Of a stretch of DNA of 20,558 nt, positions 1,422-20,558 are shown piece by piece. Source of the DNA: a virus (taxonomy: Duplodnaviria; Heunggongvirae; Uroviricota; Caudoviricetes); IMG/VR virus record IMGVR_UViG_2541047726_000008; one strand, given 5' to 3'. The position numbers and the translations under genes were made by a program. How positions within the stretch are numbered: the stretch's first letter is position 1; each line of letters begins with the position of its first letter. A model generated the notes under the pieces. That model searched no databases, was not told the origin of the DNA, and was given only the letters and a program-made list of their open reading frames with translations.

Positions 1422-3896
1422 TTAAAAATCAGCCTGATTCGGGATCAGTTTTTGCCAGATAGTTGAAACGTATTTTGCCTGGTAACGGGCATCATCCAGC
1501 GCATTGTGGCGCTCACCTTCGAATGGAATAGCCGCCCTGGCATCGAAGTCCATGGCTTTTCCCAGCTCAACGATTGTGCGTACATCGCGATCGTTGTAGT
1601 AACGCCACGGGCAGGGGATCCCCTGCCGTTCGTATGAACGGCGCAAAATCGTGTTGTCGAAGTTGGCTCCATTTCCCCAGACCTGAACAAAAAATTCGCC
1701 GGAGTTTTCGTCGATAAATTCCCGCAATTGCAGCAGTGCATCATCTAACGGGATTTCATCGGTCAGAATGGCAGATTGCGCCTCCCGTGATTGCTTAAGC
1801 CACCATTTAATGGTGCCACGATCAATGACTCCGCCAGCAGTATCCATATCGATGGTCTTACTAAATTCCGGCCCCATATCTCCGGTTTGCGGATCGAAAA
1901 ATATTGCACCTATTGAGATAAGCGGGGCATCGGGATTTTTTCCCATGGTTTCAAGGTCGATCATCATGTGGTGCCACATTCTGCTGGTGGATGTGATTTC
2001 TTGATGACCGTTCACCTTAATTGAGTGATCTGCCGTCTCGCCAGTTTCATTATCGCTATCGTGATGCTGATTGCCGCCAGTGTTCTCCTTGTGTGGATGT
2101 TCAGCGCCTTCCATTTCCTCCGGATCATCTTCCTGAACTTCAGGCTGATACTCTTCATCGAATGTTTCCTGGTATGTTGCGTCGCCCATTACCGCGCCAC
2201 AATCAGGGCAGTTGCCGCCGCCGGTCTGACCGCAGGCGGTGCAGACTTTTTCCACTTCCTGTTGCGCCACTGATTCAGGCTGTTTCGTTTCTGGCTCGTT
2301 TTGTAACGCATTTGGGCTGTTTTGTTCCGCTTTCTGGTCGTTCTGTTCCGTTTCTTGCTGGTTCTGGTTCACAGAATCGCGGGTCTGGTTCCCCTTAACC
2401 CATTTCGGATCATTCGGGTCGCTAATCCCTTCAACAAATTCACCACGTGATACTGCAAGCAGTTCATCGGCGTCAGGCTGGCTGATATTGGCTGCCTGCA
2501 TAATTTTGTTTACTTCGTCAGCGGTAACTTTTACTGGCTCTGGTTGTGCGGTCGTGTCAGATGCACCAGTATTTTGTTGTGAACCTGAGTATGTACCGTT
2601 TTTACGTGCGAAGTATTCCTCTTTTGTGATTTCCGTAGCTCCCAGGGCCAGTGCTTTTTCCAGACCAGAAAGTTTGTTTGCGCGACCGTATTTTTCGCCG
2701 TCCTTATCGGTGAAAAGGAAGTAGAACGGTCCCTCACGCTCTACAGATGGTTCGTCTTCCACTTCGCATTCGGTTTTTTCGTTGTCCGGCATTGCCGTTT
2801 CCACTGCATCAGTTTCTGGTACTGGTGACGGGAGAGTACCAGCTGTGCCCTGATTTGTTCCTTCGTCATCTTCAAACACGCCCTTGGTAGTCAGGTATTC
2901 AGTGATGTATTTGTTCAGTGCTACGGGATCTTTGTGAATGTCGATCGGACGCTCACGGACAAGGCCAAAAATAGTCTGACGGTCGTAGCGAACGGCATCG
3001 GGTTGTTTGCGCATTGATGCGGAAATGCGCTTCCAGTCTTCGCGATCTTTGTCGATAACTTCATTTTTTGCCCAGCGATGGATGCTGCCGTCAATGTTTC
3101 CGGTATCAATATCGCCAGGCCAGAGAGCGTAGGCCAGTTCTTCATCCAGCGTTTTCCATGTCTGCTTGTATTCGCGACAAATGGCGGCAGTGACTGGGTT
3201 GATTTTTCCTGCTGAGTTTTCAGTGTTCTGTTGATTGACTCTGGCGCGGGCGAGATCAACAACAGACGTGTATTTTCCGGTTTCCTTGCGTTCACCTTCG
3301 CGACGTTTTTTCCAGATGCGCATCTCTGCCTGAATTTCGGGCCATTTGGCACCAGGCTTACATTTATGCTTAACCCACCCGATGGCATGCAGCTTAAGCT
3401 CCGGATACATGGCGTTAACTTCTGGCATTTTCATCAACGCTTCAACGATATGTCCGTCGAATGTTGCCATGTCTTCCTGCAACAATTCCTGTGCGCTAAT
3501 AACCATATCAACGGTGATGTTTTCACATGTGTCGAACTTAACCATGACAGCGTTCTGTACTTCAGGGACCAGCTTGTCAAAAGTGACGTTCATCGGATCT
3601 GATTCAGTCTCAACCGGGACAAAGGAAGCAGACTCCTCATCCCAGCGGTTTTCCTGCATATATTCAGCATCCCAGGAATCGAGGGCAGGGCGGGGTATGC
3701 CGGGTTTATCCTCACAGACAATAAATTTATAAGCGCAGTCCTGAGCTGCAGGGAATTGCTCCAGAAATTGCCAATGAAATTTTGCGCGTGCGCGACGCTC
3801 ATCACCAGCTTCAATGGCAGTGGCCACCGCAACAGCGCTATCTTCTTTTATGGCCTGTTCATCAGGAATAGCAGCGCAAATAAAGACTTTACTCAT
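1422..3896 (-). CDS. Large prophage exonuclease: unknown N-terminal region, acidic linker with CxxC…CxxC zinc ribbon, C-terminal DnaQ-like 3'-5' exonuclease domain
   Basis: 824-aa ORF, ATG at 3896 with GAGGT 8 nt upstream. C-terminal about 180 aa carries DEDDh-type exonuclease motifs (MIDLETMG…, …HNALDDARYQAKY). Middle is Q/E/N/D-rich low complexity containing CTACGQTGGGNCPDCG. Confidence 0.85.
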   Translation of the reverse strand: MSKVFICAAIPDEQAIKEDSAVAVATAIEAGDERRARAKFHWQFLEQFPAAQDCAYKFIVCEDKPGIPRPALDSWDAEYMQENRWDEESASFVPVETESDPMNVTFDKLVPEVQNAVMVKFDTCENITVDMVISAQELLQEDMATFDGHIVEALMKMPEVNAMYPELKLHAIGWVKHKCKPGAKWPEIQAEMRIWKKRREGERKETGKYTSVVDLARARVNQQNTENSAGKINPVTAAICREYKQTWKTLDEELAYALWPGDIDTGNIDGSIHRWAKNEVIDKDREDWKRISASMRKQPDAVRYDRQTIFGLVRERPIDIHKDPVALNKYITEYLTTKGVFEDDEGTNQGTAGTLPSPVPETDAVETAMPDNEKTECEVEDEPSVEREGPFYFLFTDKDGEKYGRANKLSGLEKALALGATEITKEEYFARKNGTYSGSQQNTGASDTTAQPEPVKVTADEVNKIMQAANISQPDADELLAVSRGEFVEGISDPNDPKWVKGNQTRDSVNQNQQETEQNDQKAEQNSPNALQNEPETKQPESVAQQEVEKVCTACGQTGGGNCPDCGAVMGDATYQETFDEEYQPEVQEDDPEEMEGAEHPHKENTGGNQHHDSDNETGETADHSIKVNGHQEITSTSRMWHHMMIDLETMGKNPDAPLISIGAIFFDPQTGDMGPEFSKTIDMDTAGGVIDRGTIKWWLKQSREAQSAILTDEIPLDDALLQLREFIDENSGEFFVQVWGNGANFDNTILRRSYERQGIPCPWRYYNDRDVRTIVELGKAMDFDARAAIPFEGERHNALDDARYQAKYVSTIWQKLIPNQADF

Positions 3897-4374: not shown

Positions 4375-4932
4375 TCAACAATGAATTTTTAGCAATTGCT
4401 CCACAGTCATATTTTTAATTGCGCTCCGGTTTACAAGAGTCCATCCTTGTTTCTCCAGATAAAACCGGAAGGTATCCAGGGTGCAGACCATTGCGCCGTC
4501 AGGAACGGTTTCAGTGAATTTGATATTGCCGTGTTCGTCGAGACGGATAACCAGGGTGCGTCCGTCCCCGTGAATCATTTTGTCGGGAGACGGGGCGTTA
4601 TTCTGGCGCAGTTCTTCCTCCATGCGATCGAACTCAGCGATGTAGGCTTCTTTGAAAGTTGCGGCTTTTTTACCTGTGAACCCCATCACCAGGAAAACGA
4701 AGCCGTTTTTGGTGATTTGGTACATTGGGAGTTTGCGCCCGGTTGAGTCGGTGTATTCGCTCGACACAAAATTGTGCTCAGTGAATTTTGCTGAACAGTC
4801 CAGATTGCGAATTTTATCCAACACTCGTTCGTGGCGTTTGCCAAAGAACTCGGCGATCGCAACAGACGTAGTGACAGCGCGACCATTTTCGATGGTTACG
4901 TCAGGGTGAGAAAGGGTAAGGATAGTAGCCAT
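4375..4932 (-). CDS. Rha-family phage regulatory protein (antirepressor-like)
   Basis: Track gives a 284-aa ORF from 5229, but residues 1-99 are low complexity. Internal ATG at 4932 is preceded by GGAGG and opens with MATILTLSHPDVTIENGRAVTTSVAIAEFFGKRHERVLDKIRNL, as Rha-domain proteins do (from memory). Re-called as 185 aa. Confidence 0.65.
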   Translation of the reverse strand: MATILTLSHPDVTIENGRAVTTSVAIAEFFGKRHERVLDKIRNLDCSAKFTEHNFVSSEYTDSTGRKLPMYQITKNGFVFLVMGFTGKKAATFKEAYIAEFDRMEEELRQNNAPSPDKMIHGDGRTLVIRLDEHGNIKFTETVPDGAMVCTLDTFRFYLEKQGWTLVNRSAIKNMTVEQLLKIHC

Positions 4933-5101
4933 GATGGCAGCCTCCGCGATGAATTTGATTAACTCACCACCGAGGTTTTCCACGACCATAAGGGTGGTGA
5001 GACGTACAGGGGTGGAAATACCGGTCATCACGGAACCCGGCCAGCCTTGCGGCTGCCCTGCACGCCCCACCATAATGCGAATGTGGCTGTGCTTAACGCA
5101 T

Positions 5102-5124
5102 AAAAAAACCGCCTGAGCGCGGTT
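5102..5124 (-). terminator. Possible weak intrinsic terminator (minus strand)
   Basis: On the minus strand reads AACCGC-GCTCAG-GCGGTT followed by 7 T. Stem is short (4 GC + 2 AT pairs). Lies upstream of the re-called Rha start, supporting the shorter gene model. Confidence 0.3.
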
Positions 5125-5804
5125 ATGCGCCGTGAATGATTTCGGGTTTCCACGCCCGGCACCCGTTTTATGAGGTGCAGGTGCACTATAATTCCACCCG
5201 TTCTGGTTTTCAATAGCTACATTCAACATTTTCTCTTACCTTTCATCACCGAAGTGAACTTTGTTGATGCGGTGCCTGGTGCCTCCAGGTGACGTTAACC
5301 AGTTAACAATTAACGCCGGATACAGAGAATCCACCCATAACACTGTTTTTGGTTTTAACTGTTCCGCGTGCGCTCAGCCGCATTCACCGCATCACAAAAT
5401 TCACTTTAAAAAGGGCGGCAGAGCAGTCACGGAGTAAAACTGATACCGCCAAAAGTCACCAGAAAATTGATAACAGAGGGCGTTGCAGCGGGGTTGTCAC
5501 TTAAGCGTATGGTCAACCTGACAACCCGGTGTCCTCAACGGGGGAAGGAATAACCCCGCCATACTTACCGCCGCGCCATTTCGCGGATTGCCACAACCGG
5601 AAGCGCACGGTCGACGAAAATTTAACGACAGGCTATCTATGAACCAGCTACCTCGCCGTGCGCTTTCGCGTTATGGTCTGACTTTTCAGGGAAATATCCT
5701 TTCAGTAAACTGTCAGTGCCGGATTCTTATCCGTGTCCGGCGCACGACCACACGCTGTCACGAGAGGTCTCCATTCTCAACCAGTAACCTCAATGGAGGA
5801 TAAA

Positions 5805-13999: not shown

Positions 14000-14039
14000 T
14001 GCAGCGGGTGCTTGAGGCTATCTGTCTCAGGCATGAACA

Positions 14040-14130
14040 CCAAAAGGCAGATAGAGAAAAGCCCCAGTTAACATTACGCGTCCGGCAAGACGCTTAACAT
14101 TAATCTGAGGCCATATCTATGCTCTACACA
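14040..14130 (-). ncRNA. Putative Sok-like antisense RNA (approximate)
   Basis: Inferred from hok-family architecture. Candidate minus-strand promoter TTGCCT (14162..14157), 17 nt, TAACCT (14139..14134) would drive an antisense RNA across the upstream-ORF initiation region. The -10 is weak and the ends are not defined. Confidence 0.3.
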
Positions 14131-14175
14131 CGTAGGTTAGCCTCTTACGTGCCGAAAGGCAAGGAGAAGCAGGCT

Positions 14176-14331
14176 ATGAAGCAGCAAAAGGCGATGCTAA
14201 TCGCCCTGATCGTCATCTGTTTAACCGTCATTGTGACGGCACTGGTAACGAGGAAAGACCTCTGCGAGGTACGAATCCGAACCGGCCAGACGGAGGTCGC
14301 TGTCTTCACAGCTTACGAACCTGAGGAGTAA
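14176..14331 (+). CDS. hok: Hok/Gef-family type I toxin
   Basis: 51 aa, MKQQKAMLIALIVICLTVIVTALVTRKDLCEVRIRTGQTEVAVFTAYEPEE, matching the Hok pattern (…CLT…TRK.LCE.R…G..EVAAF.AYE). AAGGAG 9 nt upstream. An in-frame upstream ATG at 14119 with its own SD extends the frame by 19 codons (mok-like leader ORF). Confidence 0.8.
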   Translation: MKQQKAMLIALIVICLTVIVTALVTRKDLCEVRIRTGQTEVAVFTAYEPEE

Positions 14332-14496: not shown

Positions 14497-15147
14497 ATGA
14501 ATGAAAATCAGTTAGCTCCTTGTTGGGAATTTCAACCTTATCTTGCTGAAAACTATGTTCGCCACTTGTTGGCGGAGATCGCTAACGTACTTGAGCAGCT
14601 GTACTATCATAAGCACGCATTAGACAGCAACTGGTCTGAAGGTGTAAGGGCTTATGATTGGGTCAGAAATCATCTTATTCAAAATGAAGATGCAATTCCT
14701 GGCCTTGAGATGATTTCCAAGGGGTTGGACTATGTAGTTGCTTTAAATAAAGTTCCGCTACAATTTACCAAAGATTGCATTAATAACCCCAAAAAGAAAC
14801 ATCGTCTGCGTCGAAATAAAGTAGAGTATGAGCAGCTCTCATTGTTTGGTGATGTTGAGGCTGAGCAAGATATTACATGGCGAGTCATAGCTGAGCCTTT
14901 TTTATCCGAAGAGGGCGATGGTGAATTAGAGTCCACACTGCCTCGTTGGGAGGTAGCTCTTGTTGGATTTAATACTTATGGTGCTCAGATTAGTATAGTT
15001 TCTCATCAATCTACAGCATCGATGCCGCTTATGCCTCTTGATTATAACACACTCCCTGACGAAGCGGAGATTAATAAGGTGCCTCTTCGTCGGCGTACGA
15101 AGGATAAAGATTTGGATGTGAGCAGTGATGGAACATCAGGTGAATAA
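14497..15147 (+). CDS. Hypothetical protein (216 aa), first gene of the cargo cassette
   Basis: ATG at 14497 without a clear SD. Visibly AT-rich coding sequence (about one third GC by eye in the first 60 nt). No motif recognised. Its last 20 nt overlap the next gene. Confidence 0.6.
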   Translation: MNENQLAPCWEFQPYLAENYVRHLLAEIANVLEQLYYHKHALDSNWSEGVRAYDWVRNHLIQNEDAIPGLEMISKGLDYVVALNKVPLQFTKDCINNPKKKHRLRRNKVEYEQLSLFGDVEAEQDITWRVIAEPFLSEEGDGELESTLPRWEVALVGFNTYGAQISIVSHQSTASMPLMPLDYNTLPDEAEINKVPLRRRTKDKDLDVSSDGTSGE

Positions 15148-16231
15148 CTTCACTGAGTATCGGGGTGATAAGCTCAAACTAGCGAGAATGGCTGTTGGGC
15201 TTTCTTGTGAAGAGTTAGCCGAAAAAATTGGCAAGACAAAGCAATTCGTTAGCAAACTGGAGAAGGGGTGCAGGCCATCGGAGCAATGTCTTGAGTTAAT
15301 ATCTTCAGCGCTTATGATTAAGTCCAGTTTTCTTTTTACTGAACGAAAATACGCTCTGGAAAGTGATGTCTGCCATTTTCGGAGTAAGAAGTCCAGGACT
15401 CAAACGCTGACTAATAGTGTATTGGCCAGGGCTGAGATTCTTAATATTATAATTTCTGCTGTTGAAGGTGAAATCGAATTTCCTGACGTTAACATACCGG
15501 AGCACCCAGGGGCTGAATTACTTACTCCGAATGATATTGAGCGAGTGGCAGAAGATTGTCGCCGTGCCTGGAATTTAGGTCTTGGCCCTATATCATCAAT
15601 GGTTAAATTGGCGGAGAGTTTAGGGGTAATCGTTGCGCATGTTACGGGAGTCGATGATCGTGTTGATGCTTTTACTGTTCACAATAACAGGCCTGTTATC
15701 ATCAGGAACAATGTTAAAAAAAGCATATGTAGATTTCGCTCTGATTTAGGTCATGAATTAGGGCATTTAGTAATGCATGAGGGCATAACGACAGGTGATA
15801 AACTTACGGAATCACAAGCCGATCACTTTTCGAGCGCCTTATTAGTTCCCAGGTTATCTTTCATTAAAGAATTTCCACGAATACGAGGTAAGCAATTCGA
15901 CTGGAATGCTCTGGTTGAATTTAAACTTAGATGGAAAATCAGCCTTAAAATGTGTATTTATCGAGCCAGCGCATTAGGCTTATTGACCCAGGAACAGGCA
16001 AGAACTGGCTATATGCATCTTAATTCCAGAGGGTATACGAGAGTTGAACCTGGTGATGAACTTTTGCGCCCTGAAGAACCCGGCATGCTGGCCGAGGCGA
16101 TTGAAATGCTGGATGATGCAACCTGGCTAAGAATTCTTATGAAAACTGGCTTGAGCCAAGATTTAATTCGTGAGTTGTTCTCCATCAACAGACCTATTAC
16201 AAATCCAAGAAATATTTTCCAGATTGTTTGA
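15128..16231 (+). CDS. Fused XRE-family HTH / ImmA(IrrE)-type zinc metallopeptidase
   Basis: Track start is GTG 15125; ATG at 15128. 367 aa. N-terminal HTH (LKLARMAVGLSCEELAEKIGKTKQFVSKLEKG) and central HEXXH motif in an ImmA/IrrE-like context (…FRSDLGHELGHLVMHEG…). Confidence 0.8.
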   Translation: MEHQVNNFTEYRGDKLKLARMAVGLSCEELAEKIGKTKQFVSKLEKGCRPSEQCLELISSALMIKSSFLFTERKYALESDVCHFRSKKSRTQTLTNSVLARAEILNIIISAVEGEIEFPDVNIPEHPGAELLTPNDIERVAEDCRRAWNLGLGPISSMVKLAESLGVIVAHVTGVDDRVDAFTVHNNRPVIIRNNVKKSICRFRSDLGHELGHLVMHEGITTGDKLTESQADHFSSALLVPRLSFIKEFPRIRGKQFDWNALVEFKLRWKISLKMCIYRASALGLLTQEQARTGYMHLNSRGYTRVEPGDELLRPEEPGMLAEAIEMLDDATWLRILMKTGLSQDLIRELFSINRPITNPRNIFQIV

Positions 16232-17954: not shown

Positions 17955-18329
17955 ATGCTCATAGATTTGGTTTTACCTTACCCGCCGACGGTGAACACTT
18001 ACTGGCGACGCCGTGGCAGCACATATTTTATCTCGGAGGAGGGAAAGCGTTATCGCCGGGCTGTGGCGCTTATTGTTCGCCAGCAGCGGCTGAAATTAAG
18101 CCTGTCCGGAAGGCTGGCGATAAAGGTGATTGCAGAGCCACCGGATAAGCGTCGTCGCGACCTGGACAATATCCTGAAAGCACCGCTGGATGCGCTGACG
18201 CATGCGGGAGTGTTAATGGACGATGAGCAGTTTGATGAAATCAATATCGTTCGTGGTCAGCCAGTATCTGGTGGACGTATGGGGGTGAAGATTTGCCCCA
18301 TAATGCATGAAGAGCAGGTCAAAAAATGA
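17955..18329 (+). CDS. rusA: Holliday junction resolvase RusA
   Basis: 124 aa, ATG at 17955 with AAGAGGTG upstream. …PPDKRRRDLDNILKAPLDALTHAGVLMDDEQF… matches the RusA catalytic-region pattern (DRRRRDLDN…DALT.AG…DD.Q) as recalled. Confidence 0.85.
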   Translation: MLIDLVLPYPPTVNTYWRRRGSTYFISEEGKRYRRAVALIVRQQRLKLSLSGRLAIKVIAEPPDKRRRDLDNILKAPLDALTHAGVLMDDEQFDEINIVRGQPVSGGRMGVKICPIMHEEQVKK

Positions 18330-19147
18330 AACTGGAAGATTTACCGAAATACTACTCCCCAAAATCCCCTGGCCTGACCGATGCATCGGCCTCAACGTCA
18401 AAAGATGCGCTGAGTATCACTGATGTGATGGCCGCGCAGGGCATGACACAGAATCGGGCTGAGATGGGGTTTTCTGCGTTCCTGGGGAAAATGGGCATCA
18501 GTATGAATGACAGGGCGCGGGCAACAGAATTACTGGCAGATTATGCACTCAGTCGGTGCGATCGTGTGGCGGCGTTGAGAAAACTTCCGGCAGAAATAAA
18601 ACCGGTAGTGATGCGCATTATGGCTTCGTATGCGTTTGAAGATTATGCCCGTAGCGCGGCGAGCAAAAAACAGTGCCCCTGCTGTCACGGAAAAAAATTT
18701 ATTGAAAGCGAGGTTTTTACAAACAAGATCCAGTATCCGGATGGTAAGCCACCAGTGTGGGCAAAGTGCACAAAAGGCGTGTATCCGTCTTACTGGGAAG
18801 AATGGAAAAAAGTCAGGGAGGTGGTAAAAGTTGCCTGTCCGGAGTGTGGCGGAAAGGGTGAGGTTTCCACCGCCTGTAAGGATTGCCGTGGGCGTGGTGT
18901 CGCCATTCATCGTGAAGAGTCGGTAAAACGTGGTATGCCTGTTATCAGAGATTGCCAGCGTTGTGGTGGTCGTGGCTGTGAAAGGCTGCCATCAACGGAG
19001 GCATTTAATGCCATATGCAAAGTGACGAGTGCTATCACGCTTGATACGTGGAAAAAATCAGTGAAACGCTTTTACGATACGTTGGTGGTTCGGTTTGACA
19101 TTGAAGAGGCATGGGCGGAGCGGCAGTTAAAGAGGGTAACGCGATAG
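18326..19147 (+). CDS. Q-like late-gene antiterminator candidate (zinc-finger protein)
   Basis: 273 aa; ATGA overlap with the rusA stop. Four CxxC motifs, three as CxxCxGxG repeats (CPCCHGKK, CPECGGKGE, CKDCRGRG, CQRCGGRG). Sits immediately upstream of a strong promoter and terminator pair like lambda Q / pR' / tR'. Assignment rests mainly on position. Confidence 0.5.
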   Translation: MKLEDLPKYYSPKSPGLTDASASTSKDALSITDVMAAQGMTQNRAEMGFSAFLGKMGISMNDRARATELLADYALSRCDRVAALRKLPAEIKPVVMRIMASYAFEDYARSAASKKQCPCCHGKKFIESEVFTNKIQYPDGKPPVWAKCTKGVYPSYWEEWKKVREVVKVACPECGGKGEVSTACKDCRGRGVAIHREESVKRGMPVIRDCQRCGGRGCERLPSTEAFNAICKVTSAITLDTWKKSVKRFYDTLVVRFDIEEAWAERQLKRVTR

Positions 19148-19152
19148 TGTTG

Positions 19153-19180
19153 TTGATTTTTCCCGAATCTGTGGTAAATT
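19153..19180 (+). promoter_or_regulatory. pR'-like late promoter
   Basis: TTGATT (19153-19158), 16-nt spacer, TAAATT (19175-19180), directly after the Q-like gene. Confidence 0.45.
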
Positions 19181-19228
19181 TGCTCTAACGATGGGCGTTT
19201 TATGCCTGACGTTAGAAGATTTTTTACA

Positions 19229-19251
19229 CCCCGCCGCCTGGCGGGTTTTTT
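19229..19251 (+). terminator. tR'-like intrinsic terminator
   Basis: CCCGCC-GCCT-GGCGGG plus T6, about 45 nt downstream of the predicted pR'-like TSS. Confidence 0.6.
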
Positions 19252-19373
19252 ATGACTGAAATCGCGTCAGTACAGTAAACGCGCTGGTGGCGGTGAATAC
19301 CTGTCTTTCAGCTTGCTGGCTTTTTCGACAAGAGTTATTGGTGTGTCACGTTAACCGGAAAAGGGAAAAAGAC

Positions 19374-19571
19374 ATGCTAAAACAGCAGGATATGACAGAA
19401 ACCGCCAGAGTGGTGTTTAATGAATTAAGCGTTACCGAACCGGCGACAGTCGGGGAGATAGCGCAGAATACTTACCTTTCACGCGAACGCTGCCAGTTAA
19501 TACTGACCCAGCTGGTTATGGCGGGTCTGGCAGACTATCAGTTTGGTTGTTACAGACGCCTTCAGTCCTGA
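19374..19571 (+). CDS. Hypothetical small protein (65 aa), possible HTH
   Basis: Track ORF 19287..19571; ATG at 19374 has AAGGGAAAA upstream (MLKQQDMTETARVVFNELSVTEPATVGEIAQNTYLSRERCQLILTQLV…). Confidence 0.45.
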   Translation: MLKQQDMTETARVVFNELSVTEPATVGEIAQNTYLSRERCQLILTQLVMAGLADYQFGCYRRLQS

Positions 19572-19582
19572 AGGCTTTTTTA
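19558..19582 (+). terminator. Intrinsic terminator after the small gene
   Basis: GCCTTCA-GTCC-TGAAGGC followed by TTTTTT; the stop codon lies inside the stem. Confidence 0.55.
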
Positions 19583-19721
19583 TTTGTGGTAAATGGGCGG
19601 CTGGTGGGTGTTAGGGGCACTCACCAGCCATCTGCTCATGCGTTGGGTTCACAAGCAAACCTCAGGCCCACTGCTTTGCGCAAAAGCAGAATGAGCCTAT
19701 CAGAGACAGGCTTAATGATCC

Positions 19722-20558
19722 ATGCTTAATACTGTAAAAATATCCAGTTGTGAGTTAATCAACGCCGACTGCCTGGAATTTATCCGGTCGTTACCCGAAA
19801 ATTCTGTTGACCTGATAGTCACGGACCCGCCGTACTTTAAAGTGAAGCCTGAGGGCTGGGATAACCAGTGGAAGGGCGACGATGATTACCTGAAGTGGCT
19901 GGACCAGTGTCTGGCGCAGTTCTGGCGGGTGCTGAAACCTGCCGGAAGTCTTTACCTGTTCTGTGGTCATCGCCTGGCATCTGATATCGAAATCATGATG
20001 CGTGAACGCTTCAGTGTGCTGAACCATATTATCTGGGCAAAGCCGTCCGGACGCTGGAACGGGTGCAACAAGGAAAGCCTGCGGGCGTATTTCCCCGCCA
20101 CAGAGCGCATTCTGTTCGCGGAACATTATCAGGGGCCGTATCGTCCGAAAGATGCCGGGTATGAGGCGAAGGGCAGGGCACTGAAACAGCATGTGATGGC
20201 CCCGCTGATTGCTTACTTTCGTGATGCGCGCGCTGCCCTGGGGATAACGGCAAAACAGATAGTGGATGCCACAGGAAAGAAAAACATGGTGTCGCACTGG
20301 TTCAGTGCCAGTCAGTGGCAGCTGCCGAACGAAAGTGATTATCTGAAATTACAGGCGCTGTTTGCCCGGGTGGCAGAAGAGAAGCATCAGCGGGGTGAAC
20401 TGGAAAAGCCCCACCACCAGCTGCTGGAGACGTATACTTCACTGAACCGGCAGTATGCGGAACTGCAGAGTGAATATAAGCATCTGCGGCGGTATTTTGG
20501 CGTGACGGCGCAGGTGCCGTACACGGATGTGTGGACGCATAAACCGGTGCAGTACTAT
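19722..20558 (+). CDS. N6-adenine DNA methyltransferase (3'-partial, continues past the window)
   Basis: Open frame from ATG 19722 to the window end (279 codons, no stop), absent from the track because it lacks a stop. DPPY motif near the N-terminus (…DLIVTDPPYF…) and later …GSLYLFCG…, typical of beta-class amino-methyltransferases. Confidence 0.8.
   Translation, partial: MLNTVKISSCELINADCLEFIRSLPENSVDLIVTDPPYFKVKPEGWDNQWKGDDDYLKWLDQCLAQFWRVLKPAGSLYLFCGHRLASDIEIMMRERFSVLNHIIWAKPSGRWNGCNKESLRAYFPATERILFAEHYQGPYRPKDAGYEAKGRALKQHVMAPLIAYFRDARAALGITAKQIVDATGKKNMVSHWFSASQWQLPNESDYLKLQALFARVAEEKHQRGELEKPHHQLLETYTSLNRQYAELQSEYKHLRRYFGVTAQVPYTDVWTHKPVQYY

Follow-up and report, generated by a model that had tools for sequence, protein, structure and literature searches.

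RESULTS

Organization of the methylase locus

We analyzed a 20,558-nucleotide (nt) stretch of DNA from a phage of the class Caudoviricetes (IMG/VR record IMGVR_UViG_2541047726_000008), the whole of which is referred to here as the window. The analysis centered on a DNA methyltransferase (methylase) gene that runs off the 3' end of the window and on the RNA leader that precedes it. In order, this region contains the gene for a Q-type late antiterminator, a PR'-like promoter, a tR' terminator, a small open reading frame (ORF), a second intrinsic terminator, the leader, and the methylase gene (Table 1). Inspection of the reading frames revealed that the methylase frame begins with an ATG at 19722-19724 and stays open through the window end at 20558, a total of 279 codons. 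The predicted N terminus is MLNTVKISSCELINADCLEFIRSLPENSVDLIVTDPPYF. The catalytic motif IV, DPPY, occupies residues 35 to 38 (nt 19824-19835) and was invariant in an eight-sequence alignment. The truncated protein scored 65.8 bits against Pfam family PF01555 (N6_N4_Mtase; gathering cutoff, 26.7), and the full-length protein scored 150.5 bits against the same family. The original prediction, made from the DNA letters alone, had placed a DPPY-motif methyltransferase ORF at 19722 running off the window and had assigned it to the N6-adenine type; the frame, the DPPY motif, and the Pfam match bear out both statements.

The 279 residues encoded in the window are 100% identical to RefSeq protein WP_000935524.1 (352 amino acids [aa]), 99% identical to the methylase of phage 1720a-02, and 87% identical to L24 of phage phiP27. 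Comparison with M.EcoGII, the reference sequence of which was machine-read from a PDF (PMC11551740, Table S1), showed identity at 263 of 279 residues (94%) for the window protein and at 329 of 348 (95%) for the full-length methylase of Escherichia coli ABU 83972. Within the target recognition domain (TRD; four-helix, residues 160 to 237), V181A, S191P, and A212S are the sole differences, and the linker (residues ~235 to 260) carries about nine substitutions. The order of motifs, followed through the identical full-length protein, is motif IV, a central TRD, and a C-terminal motif I (FxGxG), which is that of the beta class; motif I reads FFMGSGST at about residues 309 to 316 of the ABU 83972 protein (our locus L003) and lies beyond the window end. 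The closest relatives with solved structures (RsrI, CcrM, and MboIIA) all belong to the beta class. A Dam-type, alpha-class (GATC) orphan methylase was considered and rejected, as the motif order is the reverse of that class. RefSeq genomes annotate the same gene as a DNA-methyltransferase, and full-text literature searches for the protein sequence returned no match.

M.EcoGII is reported to methylate adenine nonspecifically, in any sequence context (PMC5778455). The same paper places its gene on an E. coli O104:H4 prophage, states that the enzyme is silent during lysogeny, and describes constitutive expression as deleterious and growth impairing. The family is described there as very large, and the enzyme of phage 1720a-02 is named as a very similar member; the 99% identity between that enzyme and the window protein fits this remark. 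To judge from these comparisons, the methylase is a member of the already characterized M.EcoGII/M.EcoGI family and not a new gene. Since the family methylates adenine whatever its context, the search for a target motif that had been suggested originally is expected to come back empty.

We also looked for a restriction partner. As predicted, no restriction endonuclease-like gene was detected among the genes upstream of the methylase in the window; their products include Q (Pfam Antiterm; annotated as quuQ or antitermination protein in relatives), RusA, a DUF968 protein with a subthreshold HNH-like match, and a helix-turn-helix (HTH)/Peptidase_M78 protein. The region downstream could be followed in prophages of extraintestinal E. 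coli that are 99.9% identical to the window. In one of them, that of ABU 83972, the methylase gene is followed after 40 nt by genes for tRNA-Ile, tRNA-Arg, and tRNA-Arg, then TerB and DUF3927, then an esterase and the lysis genes. The cognate endonuclease that it had been advised to look for immediately downstream is therefore absent from this prophage. No nuclease is conserved downstream of the methylase across 79 homologous loci from other species, where the next genes are heterogeneous and mostly encode a small membrane protein that looks holin-like by eye, and no nuclease adjoining the methylase was found in Shiga toxin (Stx) phages. The methylase is an orphan with no restriction partner, and the locus does not hold the pair of enzymes that defines a type II restriction-modification (R-M) system.

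At the DNA level, many Stx2a, Stx2c, and Stx2d phages and phage 1720a-02 have a "DNA methylase" module with 96 to 97% identity to this region; for phiP27 the figure is 86.5%. The Stx2 phages and phiP27 relatives carry, one after another, Q, the small ORF, the methylase gene (352 aa), two or three tRNA genes, and stx2AB. In the ABU 83972 prophage the TerB-family and DUF3927 genes (L003, 11245-11837) fill the exact position of stx2AB, after the same three tRNA genes, which indicates a prophage of the extraintestinal pathogenic E. coli type without stx. A scan of the window for tRNA and tmRNA genes gave no match, the tRNA genes of the relatives lying past the window end; the leader is thus not a tRNA-like gene.

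The methylase does lie after Q and tR', as had been stated. The promoter, which we take to be PR'-like from its resemblance to lambda PR', is followed by GCTCTAACGATGGGCG and then by tR'. Together, PR' and tR' should yield a short RNA of about 60 nt, made constitutively and terminated at tR', as a predicted counterpart of lambda 6S RNA. In Stx phages the counterpart of the short PR'-tR' RNA is StxS (PMC7547250); a search for literature linking StxS, small RNAs, or Stx phages to an M.EcoGII-type methylase found nothing relevant. The second terminator overlaps the stop codon of the small ORF, and a hairpin with a T-rich run was seen by eye at this place in the alignment of many homologous loci. 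A sigma-70 promoter scan of 19000-20000 found none; the scan is insensitive and also misses the evident PR'. An extended -10 element at the conserved UGUGnAAAU (19585-19594) was considered and rejected: the hexamer and spacing vary among homologues, and transcripts starting there would lose conserved pairing partners.

The two upstream terminators, together with the lack of a detected promoter in this weak scan, suggest that the methylase is silent in the lysogen. The original prediction had placed the gene in the moron position. In the strict sense of an autonomous unit expressed from the prophage, the term moron does not seem to fit a gene with no recognizable promoter of its own, two terminators upstream, and a close relative, M.EcoGII, that is reported to be silent in the lysogen (PMC5778455). 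We therefore take the methylase for a probable late gene under the control of Q and not for a moron of the classical kind. The original interpretation is largely right and partly supported; the expectation of a target motif and the term moron are to be dropped.

The small ORF upstream of the methylase is winged-helix-like. Its match to Pfam TrmB is weak (E = 0.0024, below the cutoff), and a sequence search of the PDB with it gave nothing meaningful. In 61 of 79 loci, among them loci of Xenorhabdus and Photorhabdus, tblastn places its end 122 to 200 nt upstream of the methylase start codon. Its presence upstream in these loci, some of them in genera in which the leader is reduced, suggests a functional partnership. 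As far as gene order can tell, the small ORF, the leader, and the methylase travel together as a linked cassette.

Conservation of the leader

A strongly structured leader of 150 nt had been predicted in front of the methylase gene. The structured leader stands; the first ~12 nt of the predicted interval (19572-19583) are the end of the second terminator stem and its U-run. Both hairpins described originally were found where they had been placed. Hairpin 1 pairs GGCTGGTGGGTG with CACTCACCAGCC over 12 bp with one G.U pair; its folding energy is -26.1 kcal/mol (z = -5.4), and none of 200 shuffled sequences was as stable. Hairpin 2 pairs CTGCTTT (19671-19677) with AAAGCAG (19683-19689) around the loop GCGCA; its energy is -8.4 kcal/mol (z = -3.2), and 2 of 200 shuffles were equally stable. 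The entire leader (19584-19730) folds with a z-score of -3.75.

In order to determine how widely the leader is conserved, 80 loci with methylase relatives were taken from one-genome-per-species contigs. More than 40 enterobacterial species share ~73 to 83% identity with the window over the ~130 nt before the start codon; among them are Citrobacter, Salmonella, Klebsiella, Enterobacter, Kosakonia, Mixta, Erwinia, Buttiauxella, and Rosenbergiella; Providencia and Proteus have a more diverged form. The leader is thereby conserved about as well as the coding sequence (protein identity, 62 to 80%). Insertions and deletions of 1 to 3 nt in the leader loops rule out a coding function, and a 60-aa ORF with a TTG start (19547-19729) was rejected on this ground. 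Three alignments gave the same picture: A1, with 47 sequences; A3, a model-based realignment; and A4, with 82 sequences, which includes viral contigs.

A covariance model of the leader (R1) gave a single match in the window (123.8 bits) and one strong match per element-bearing locus, which in every case runs up to the methylase ATG. When viral contigs were scanned with the motif only, independently of the protein, 121 leader copies were found. An intact DPPY ORF begins 129 to 133 nt downstream in 113 of them, a damaged methylase gene follows three, and one lies at a contig end; in the other four, hairpin 1 stands alone before an unrelated gene. The leader and gene start are present in 1,651 of 5,426 complete E. 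coli genomes, with up to six copies per genome. In the sampled E. coli records, no annotated feature covers the leader except the methylase coding sequence at its 3' end. A search of the whole window against Rfam (15) at gathering thresholds gave no match at the leader. With a permissive E-value, 18900-20558 gave a single match, to P26 on the other strand, which at 19.4 bits (E = 0.4) falls short of the gathering score of 36. Full-text literature searches for strings of the leader sequence returned no match, and the passages of the M.EcoGII paper (PMC5778455) that were consulted mention neither an upstream leader nor a small ORF. The leader is, as these comparisons indicate, a conserved RNA element tied to the M.EcoGII-type gene family, widespread and apparently undescribed.

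Several further observations were made on this element. In the four viral contigs with hairpin 1 alone (L099, L133, L155, and L171), a recombination junction lies right after the hairpin: the 5' flank is kept, and an AT-rich segment and an ORF beginning MVVVCSVIMVCSPINIFLEKD follow. The Xenorhabdus and Photorhabdus loci (L048 to L081), with methylase identities of 62 to 67%, keep only a P2-like hairpin, P2 being the helix of hairpin 1 (for example, GGCGGGTG...CATCCGCC); the rest of the leader differs, and in several of these loci a U-run trails the hairpin in the manner of an intrinsic terminator. Hairpin 1 was also considered as an intrinsic terminator in the window and was rejected because no U-run follows it; such a role is possible in the Xenorhabdus variants. 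A GATC (Dam) site at 19717-19720, positions -5 to -2 of the methylase start, is almost invariant across genera (TGATCYATG).

The 5' arm of hairpin 1 holds a Chi site. The arm is nearly invariant in the Enterobacteriaceae; in several Providencia and Proteus copies it reads ACTGTAAAGGTG, which is Chi-less. The window has 11 perfect copies of GCTGGTGG in 20.5 kb, compared with 0.66 expected from shuffles, 8 of them on the plus strand and 3 on the minus strand. Two plus-strand copies lie 317 nt apart (19283-19290 and 19600-19607). By analogy with lambda, the plus-strand copies would be expected to be active for RecBCD entering from the cos/lysis side.

Alternative folds of the leader

Pairing in the alignments revealed two sets of helices (Table 1). 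In fold A, helices P1, P2, and P3 form a three-way junction that is followed by the hairpins P5 and P6. In fold B, P1' stacks under P2 to give an extended hairpin, and P4 lies beneath P5. P1' excludes both P1 and P3. Energy minimization of the window sequence yields the P1'+P2 hairpin, which spans about 18 bp and has an internal loop. Counting bare helices only, the two folds come out at similar energies for this sequence (-46.6 and -42.2 kcal/mol).

Compensatory changes were found in several helices. P2 pairs ACTGTAAAGGTG with CACCCTTACAGT in Providencia and Proteus. In P3, the fourth pair is UA in 68 sequences and CG in 10, and a conserved tandem C.A/A.C turns to C-G/G-C in outgroups. The changes in P1' are one-sided only (UA/UG, GC/GU, and GU/GC/AU). 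The base at the 5' end of the segment (G/A)UGAGCC covaries with both of its alternative partners: the triple C-G-C occurs in 44 sequences and T-A-T in 10. G.U far outnumbers A.C (74:11 in P2 and 87:7 in P6), a sign that selection acts on the plus-strand RNA. The junction single strands AUY and AACC are near-invariant. A long-range GCUCAU/GUGAGC helix, noticed by eye, was dropped for P4 and P6, which covary.

Fold A (P1, P3, and P6) and fold B (P1' and P4) are each 88 to 92% paired, compared with 31 to 46% when the partners are slid. Against column shuffling, both folds came out ahead of every shuffle on four of the five measures, and the covariation score of the whole structure was 0.126, compared with 0.084 for shuffled and 0.042 to 0.082 for slid alignments. 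P6 covers positions -13 to -8 before the ATG, the expected Shine-Dalgarno site; the methylase mRNA has no recognizable Shine-Dalgarno sequence, and its initiation region is A/U-rich. On the evidence of these alignments, the leader has two mutually exclusive folds, both conserved, one of which reaches the translation initiation region. Control of the gene through the leader structure, raised originally as a possibility, is now better supported, the leader appearing to be an RNA element that is conserved, shows covariation, and goes with this methylase family only.

Table 1. Features of the methylase locus, helices of the leader RNA, and other annotated elements of the window
Feature	Position	Strand	Basis and remarks
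Q-type late antiterminator gene	18326-19147	+	Pfam Antiterm PF03589, E = 2e-49; PHROG "anti-termination protein Q-like"
PR'-like late promoter	19153-19180	+	TTGATT 19153-19158, 16-nt spacer, TGn-TAAATT 19172-19180; read by eye
tR' terminator	19230-19251	+	Stem 19230-19245 and U-run to 19251; terminator scan; -12.6 kcal/mol
65-aa winged-helix-like ORF	19374-19571	+	phrog_331, E = 1e-37 (function unassigned in PHROG)
Second intrinsic terminator	19558-19583	+	GCCTTCAGTCCTGAAGGC + UUUUUUAUUU; stem 19558-19575; terminator scan; -10.5 kcal/mol
Conserved structured leader RNA of methylase gene	19590-19721	+	Covariance model R1 match 19579-19727
Fold A three-way junction P1/P2/P3	19594-19670	+	Alignment pairing; two hairpins (P5, P6) follow
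P1 (fold A)	19594-19598/19666-19670	+	TGGGC/GCCCA; 100% paired; one GC-to-AU double change, one GU
P2 (hairpin 1)	19599-19610/19618-19629	+	98% paired; 6 pairs changed on both sides
P3 (fold A)	19633-19657	+	T19633 + GCTCATG/CACAAGC + A19657; closing pair UA 33, CG 27, AU 10, UG 4
P5 (hairpin 2)	19671-19689	+	CTGCTTT/AAAGCAG; core GCTTT/AAAGC conserved; outer pair UA 42, CG 14, UG 5
P6	19692-19714	+	TGAGCC 19692-19697/GGCTTA 19709-19714; 88% paired; outer pair GC 45, AU 12, GU 3
P1' (fold B extended hairpin)	19593-19639	+	ATGGGC 19593-19598/GCTCAT 19634-19639; stacked under P2; 99% paired
P4 (fold B)	19665-19670/19692-19697	+	GGCCCA/TGAGCC, beneath P5; outer pairs GC 71, AU 5, GU 5 and CG 47, UA 11
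Chi	19600-19607	+	GCTGGTGG; inside 5' arm of hairpin 1
M.EcoGII-family beta-class N6-adenine DNA methyltransferase gene	19722-20558	+	First 279 of 352 codons
hok/sok-type toxin-antitoxin locus	14006-14181, 14176-14331	+	Rfam sok, 117 bits; hokD annotated in ABU 83972 prophage
C4 antisense RNA	4990-5077	-	Above Rfam gathering score
isrK	5102-5178	-	Above Rfam gathering score
DicF	5413-5464	-	Above Rfam gathering score

Other features of the window

Further inspection of the window revealed features away from the methylase. The cluster of small RNAs on the minus strand (4990-5464) overlaps and flanks an ORF of the Rha/Ash family (4375-5229). On the plus strand at 14497-16231, a 216-aa ORF without a Pfam match overlaps a 368-aa protein with HTH_3 and Peptidase_M78 domains (ImmA/IrrE-like); the pair sits between the hok/sok locus and a nin-like region and may be an accessory or defense cassette. 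On the minus strand at 1422-3896, the C-terminal 170 residues of an 824-aa ORF match the Rv2179c-like 3'-5' exoribonuclease domain (E = 2e-66), and the N-terminal 640 residues have no Pfam match.

DISCUSSION

The model that we favor, and that we regard as reasonably probable as a whole, is that of an M.EcoGII-type methylase with Q-dependent late expression, a role against restriction, and a leader that switches between two folds. In the lysogen, transcripts from PR' would stop at tR' and at the second terminator, keeping the growth-impairing methylase off. Upon induction, Q-modified polymerase would read through both terminators, and the methylase would be made late. It would then blanket the replicating phage DNA with N6-methyladenine and so shield it in a generic way from the restriction systems of the next host. 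The authors of the M.EcoGII paper (PMC5778455) themselves inferred that progeny DNA is protected from restriction. Late timing through Q-modified polymerase from PR', the antirestriction role, and the translational switch are the steps that we infer here.

Within this model, the leader may act as an RNA switch that limits translation of a toxic methylase. Fold A would free the (G/A)UGAGCC segment to pair with the -13 to -8 region (P6) and would represent the "off" state. Fold B, with the long hairpins P1'+P2 and P4+P5, would sequester the same segment and leave the initiation region open, representing the "on" state. Candidates for the selector of the fold are S-adenosylmethionine (SAM) or S-adenosylhomocysteine (SAH), the methylase itself, the winged-helix protein, and cotranscriptional kinetics. 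We suggest more tentatively that the leader belongs to an undescribed class of cis-regulatory RNA switch (a SAM/SAH riboswitch or a protein sensor) that gates translation of the methylase, and that the small ORF, leader, and methylase make up a three-part cassette of enterobacterial temperate phages; this wider proposal seems to us possible rather than probable.

Several points weigh against the model. The assignment of "on" and "off" to the two folds is conjecture. P1, P5, and most of P6 are nearly invariant and therefore have little test value, and the competing helices could also account for the one double change in P1 (Mixta, L011). P3 holds the conserved tandem C.A/A.C and is only 70 to 73% paired, and the window's own copy of the leader breaks the outer pairs of P4 and P6 (C.A and A.A). 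Kinship alone can let sequences beat column shuffles without structure, and further alternative pairings are possible, for example, of the 5' UGUGA with UCACA. On the protein side, the last 73 codons, with the SAM-binding motif I among them, fall beyond the window and were deduced from an identical relative; the machine-read M.EcoGII reference may hold errors, such as "NHHIW"; and the nonspecific activity was measured on M.EcoGII, a relative with 95% identity to the window variant.

Other explanations of the leader have to be weighed against the same data. It could be a processing or stability element or an attenuator, with P1'+P2 as an RNase III site, pause, or attenuator that separates the methylase mRNA from the upstream late transcript and sets its half-life. 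Such a role would suit P1'+P2 well, as it is the minimum-free-energy fold and the best-conserved helix (98 to 99% paired), as the Xenorhabdus homologues keep only the P2-like hairpin, several with a terminator-like U-run, and as hairpin 1 stands alone before an unrelated gene in four viral contigs. It leaves unexplained the strong covariation of P3, with its closing pair UA, CG, AU, or UG, as well as the conserved competing helices P1, P4, and P6 and the near-invariant junctions AUY and AACC; moreover, hairpin 1 has no trailing U-run in the window. We consider this explanation plausible but considerably less likely than the switch. We give somewhat less credence still to the idea that the conserved sequence acts as DNA. 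The palindrome at the core of hairpin 2 (GCTTTAGCGCTAAAGC in many homologues) would then be an operator for the winged-helix protein, which would activate or repress a promoter just before the ATG in the manner of a controller (C) protein of an R-M system, and Chi would be a recombination or RecBCD protection signal. The linkage of the winged-helix ORF to the methylase in 61 of 79 loci is compatible with this idea, as are the near-perfect DNA palindrome of hairpin 2 in about half of the homologues, the fact that no Shine-Dalgarno sequence is visible, as might be expected of a very short leader, and the Chi site in a Chi-rich window. However, P2 and P3, upstream of the palindrome, covary so as to preserve pairing and not sequence, with G.U far in excess of A.C in P2; several Providencia and Proteus copies lose Chi yet keep the helix; and no sigma-70-like promoter was found in a scan that is, as noted, insensitive.

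There is a negligible prospect that the hairpins arose by chance in an ordinary intergenic spacer: short hairpins are common and hairpin 2 alone is weak, but the z-scores of hairpin 1, hairpin 2, and the entire leader, as well as a cross-genus conservation near the level of coding sequence with compensatory changes, are at odds with it. It is also very improbable that the methylase is a sequence-specific orphan that serves epigenetic or regulatory ends as Dam and CcrM do, or one half of an R-M system with its nuclease beyond the window. The window does end inside the gene, so that the downstream region cannot be read directly in it, and the solved beta-class relatives RsrI, CcrM, and MboIIA are sequence specific. 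Against this stand the 95% identity to the nonspecific M.EcoGII with a near-identical TRD, the tRNA genes 40 nt downstream and then TerB in a 99.9%-identical genome, and the 79 loci with no conserved downstream nuclease.

What is new here is the leader; the methylase gene itself is not, as the M.EcoGII family numbers thousands of copies. M.EcoGII is widely used as a tool for chromatin footprinting and for tagging protein-DNA contacts, and its natural regulation is undescribed. If the favored model is true, the RNA switch and the small protein linked to it would illustrate concretely how a phage silences a harmful methylase until lysis, with a logic like that of mom/com of phage Mu. In the Stx2 phages, the cassette shares its late transcript with the tRNA genes and stx2, which follow it directly, and its structures and terminators thus lie on the path of toxin transcription. 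The leader motif is a candidate new RNA family for submission.

Comparison with known systems

The closest characterized system is M.EcoGII/M.EcoGI of E. coli O104:H4 C227-11, reported to be a nonspecific adenine DNA/RNA methyltransferase (Murray et al., 2018; PMC5778455), with ~95% aa identity. The two proteins share DPPY, the helical TRD, and FxGxG in the same order; both are prophage borne and have no nuclease partner. Over the first 180 residues they match but for one position, probably a PDF misreading. They differ in length (349 aa for M.EcoGII and 352 aa here), at the three TRD positions, and in the diverged linker and C-terminal tail. At the level of the module, the nearest systems are the Stx2e phage phiP27, with L24 as "putative DNA methylase," and the "DNA methylase" of many Stx2a, Stx2c, and Stx2d phages. 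These have the same order of Q, small ORF, leader, methylase, and tRNAs, with nucleotide identities of 86 to 97% to the window module. The difference lies at the stx position, which holds TerB and DUF3927 in the prophage nearly identical to the window.

The C-protein circuits of type II R-M systems are similar in that a small HTH protein is encoded directly upstream of a modification gene, with a palindrome in between. Here, in contrast, there is no nuclease to delay, the small ORF matches phrog_331 and no C-protein family, and the covariation favors RNA over an operator. Riboswitches and other leader switches share the three-way junction with conserved junction bases and the competition between helices, P1 competing with P4 and the P4 partner with P6. 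The leader described here differs in having no known ligand and no Rfam match and in its almost invariant P1; a protein-responsive or kinetic mechanism would also be possible.

The mom/com operon of phage Mu consists of a cytotoxic DNA modification gene under layered late transcriptional and translational control. Com is a zinc-finger RNA-binding protein, and Mom is not a SAM methyltransferase. In sequence, the present cassette is unrelated to mom/com, and the small ORF here is winged-helix-like. The likeness is one of logic: each would be a harmful, broad DNA modifier expressed only late, and in the present case the small upstream ORF and the leader at the start codon suggest, by analogy, translational control.

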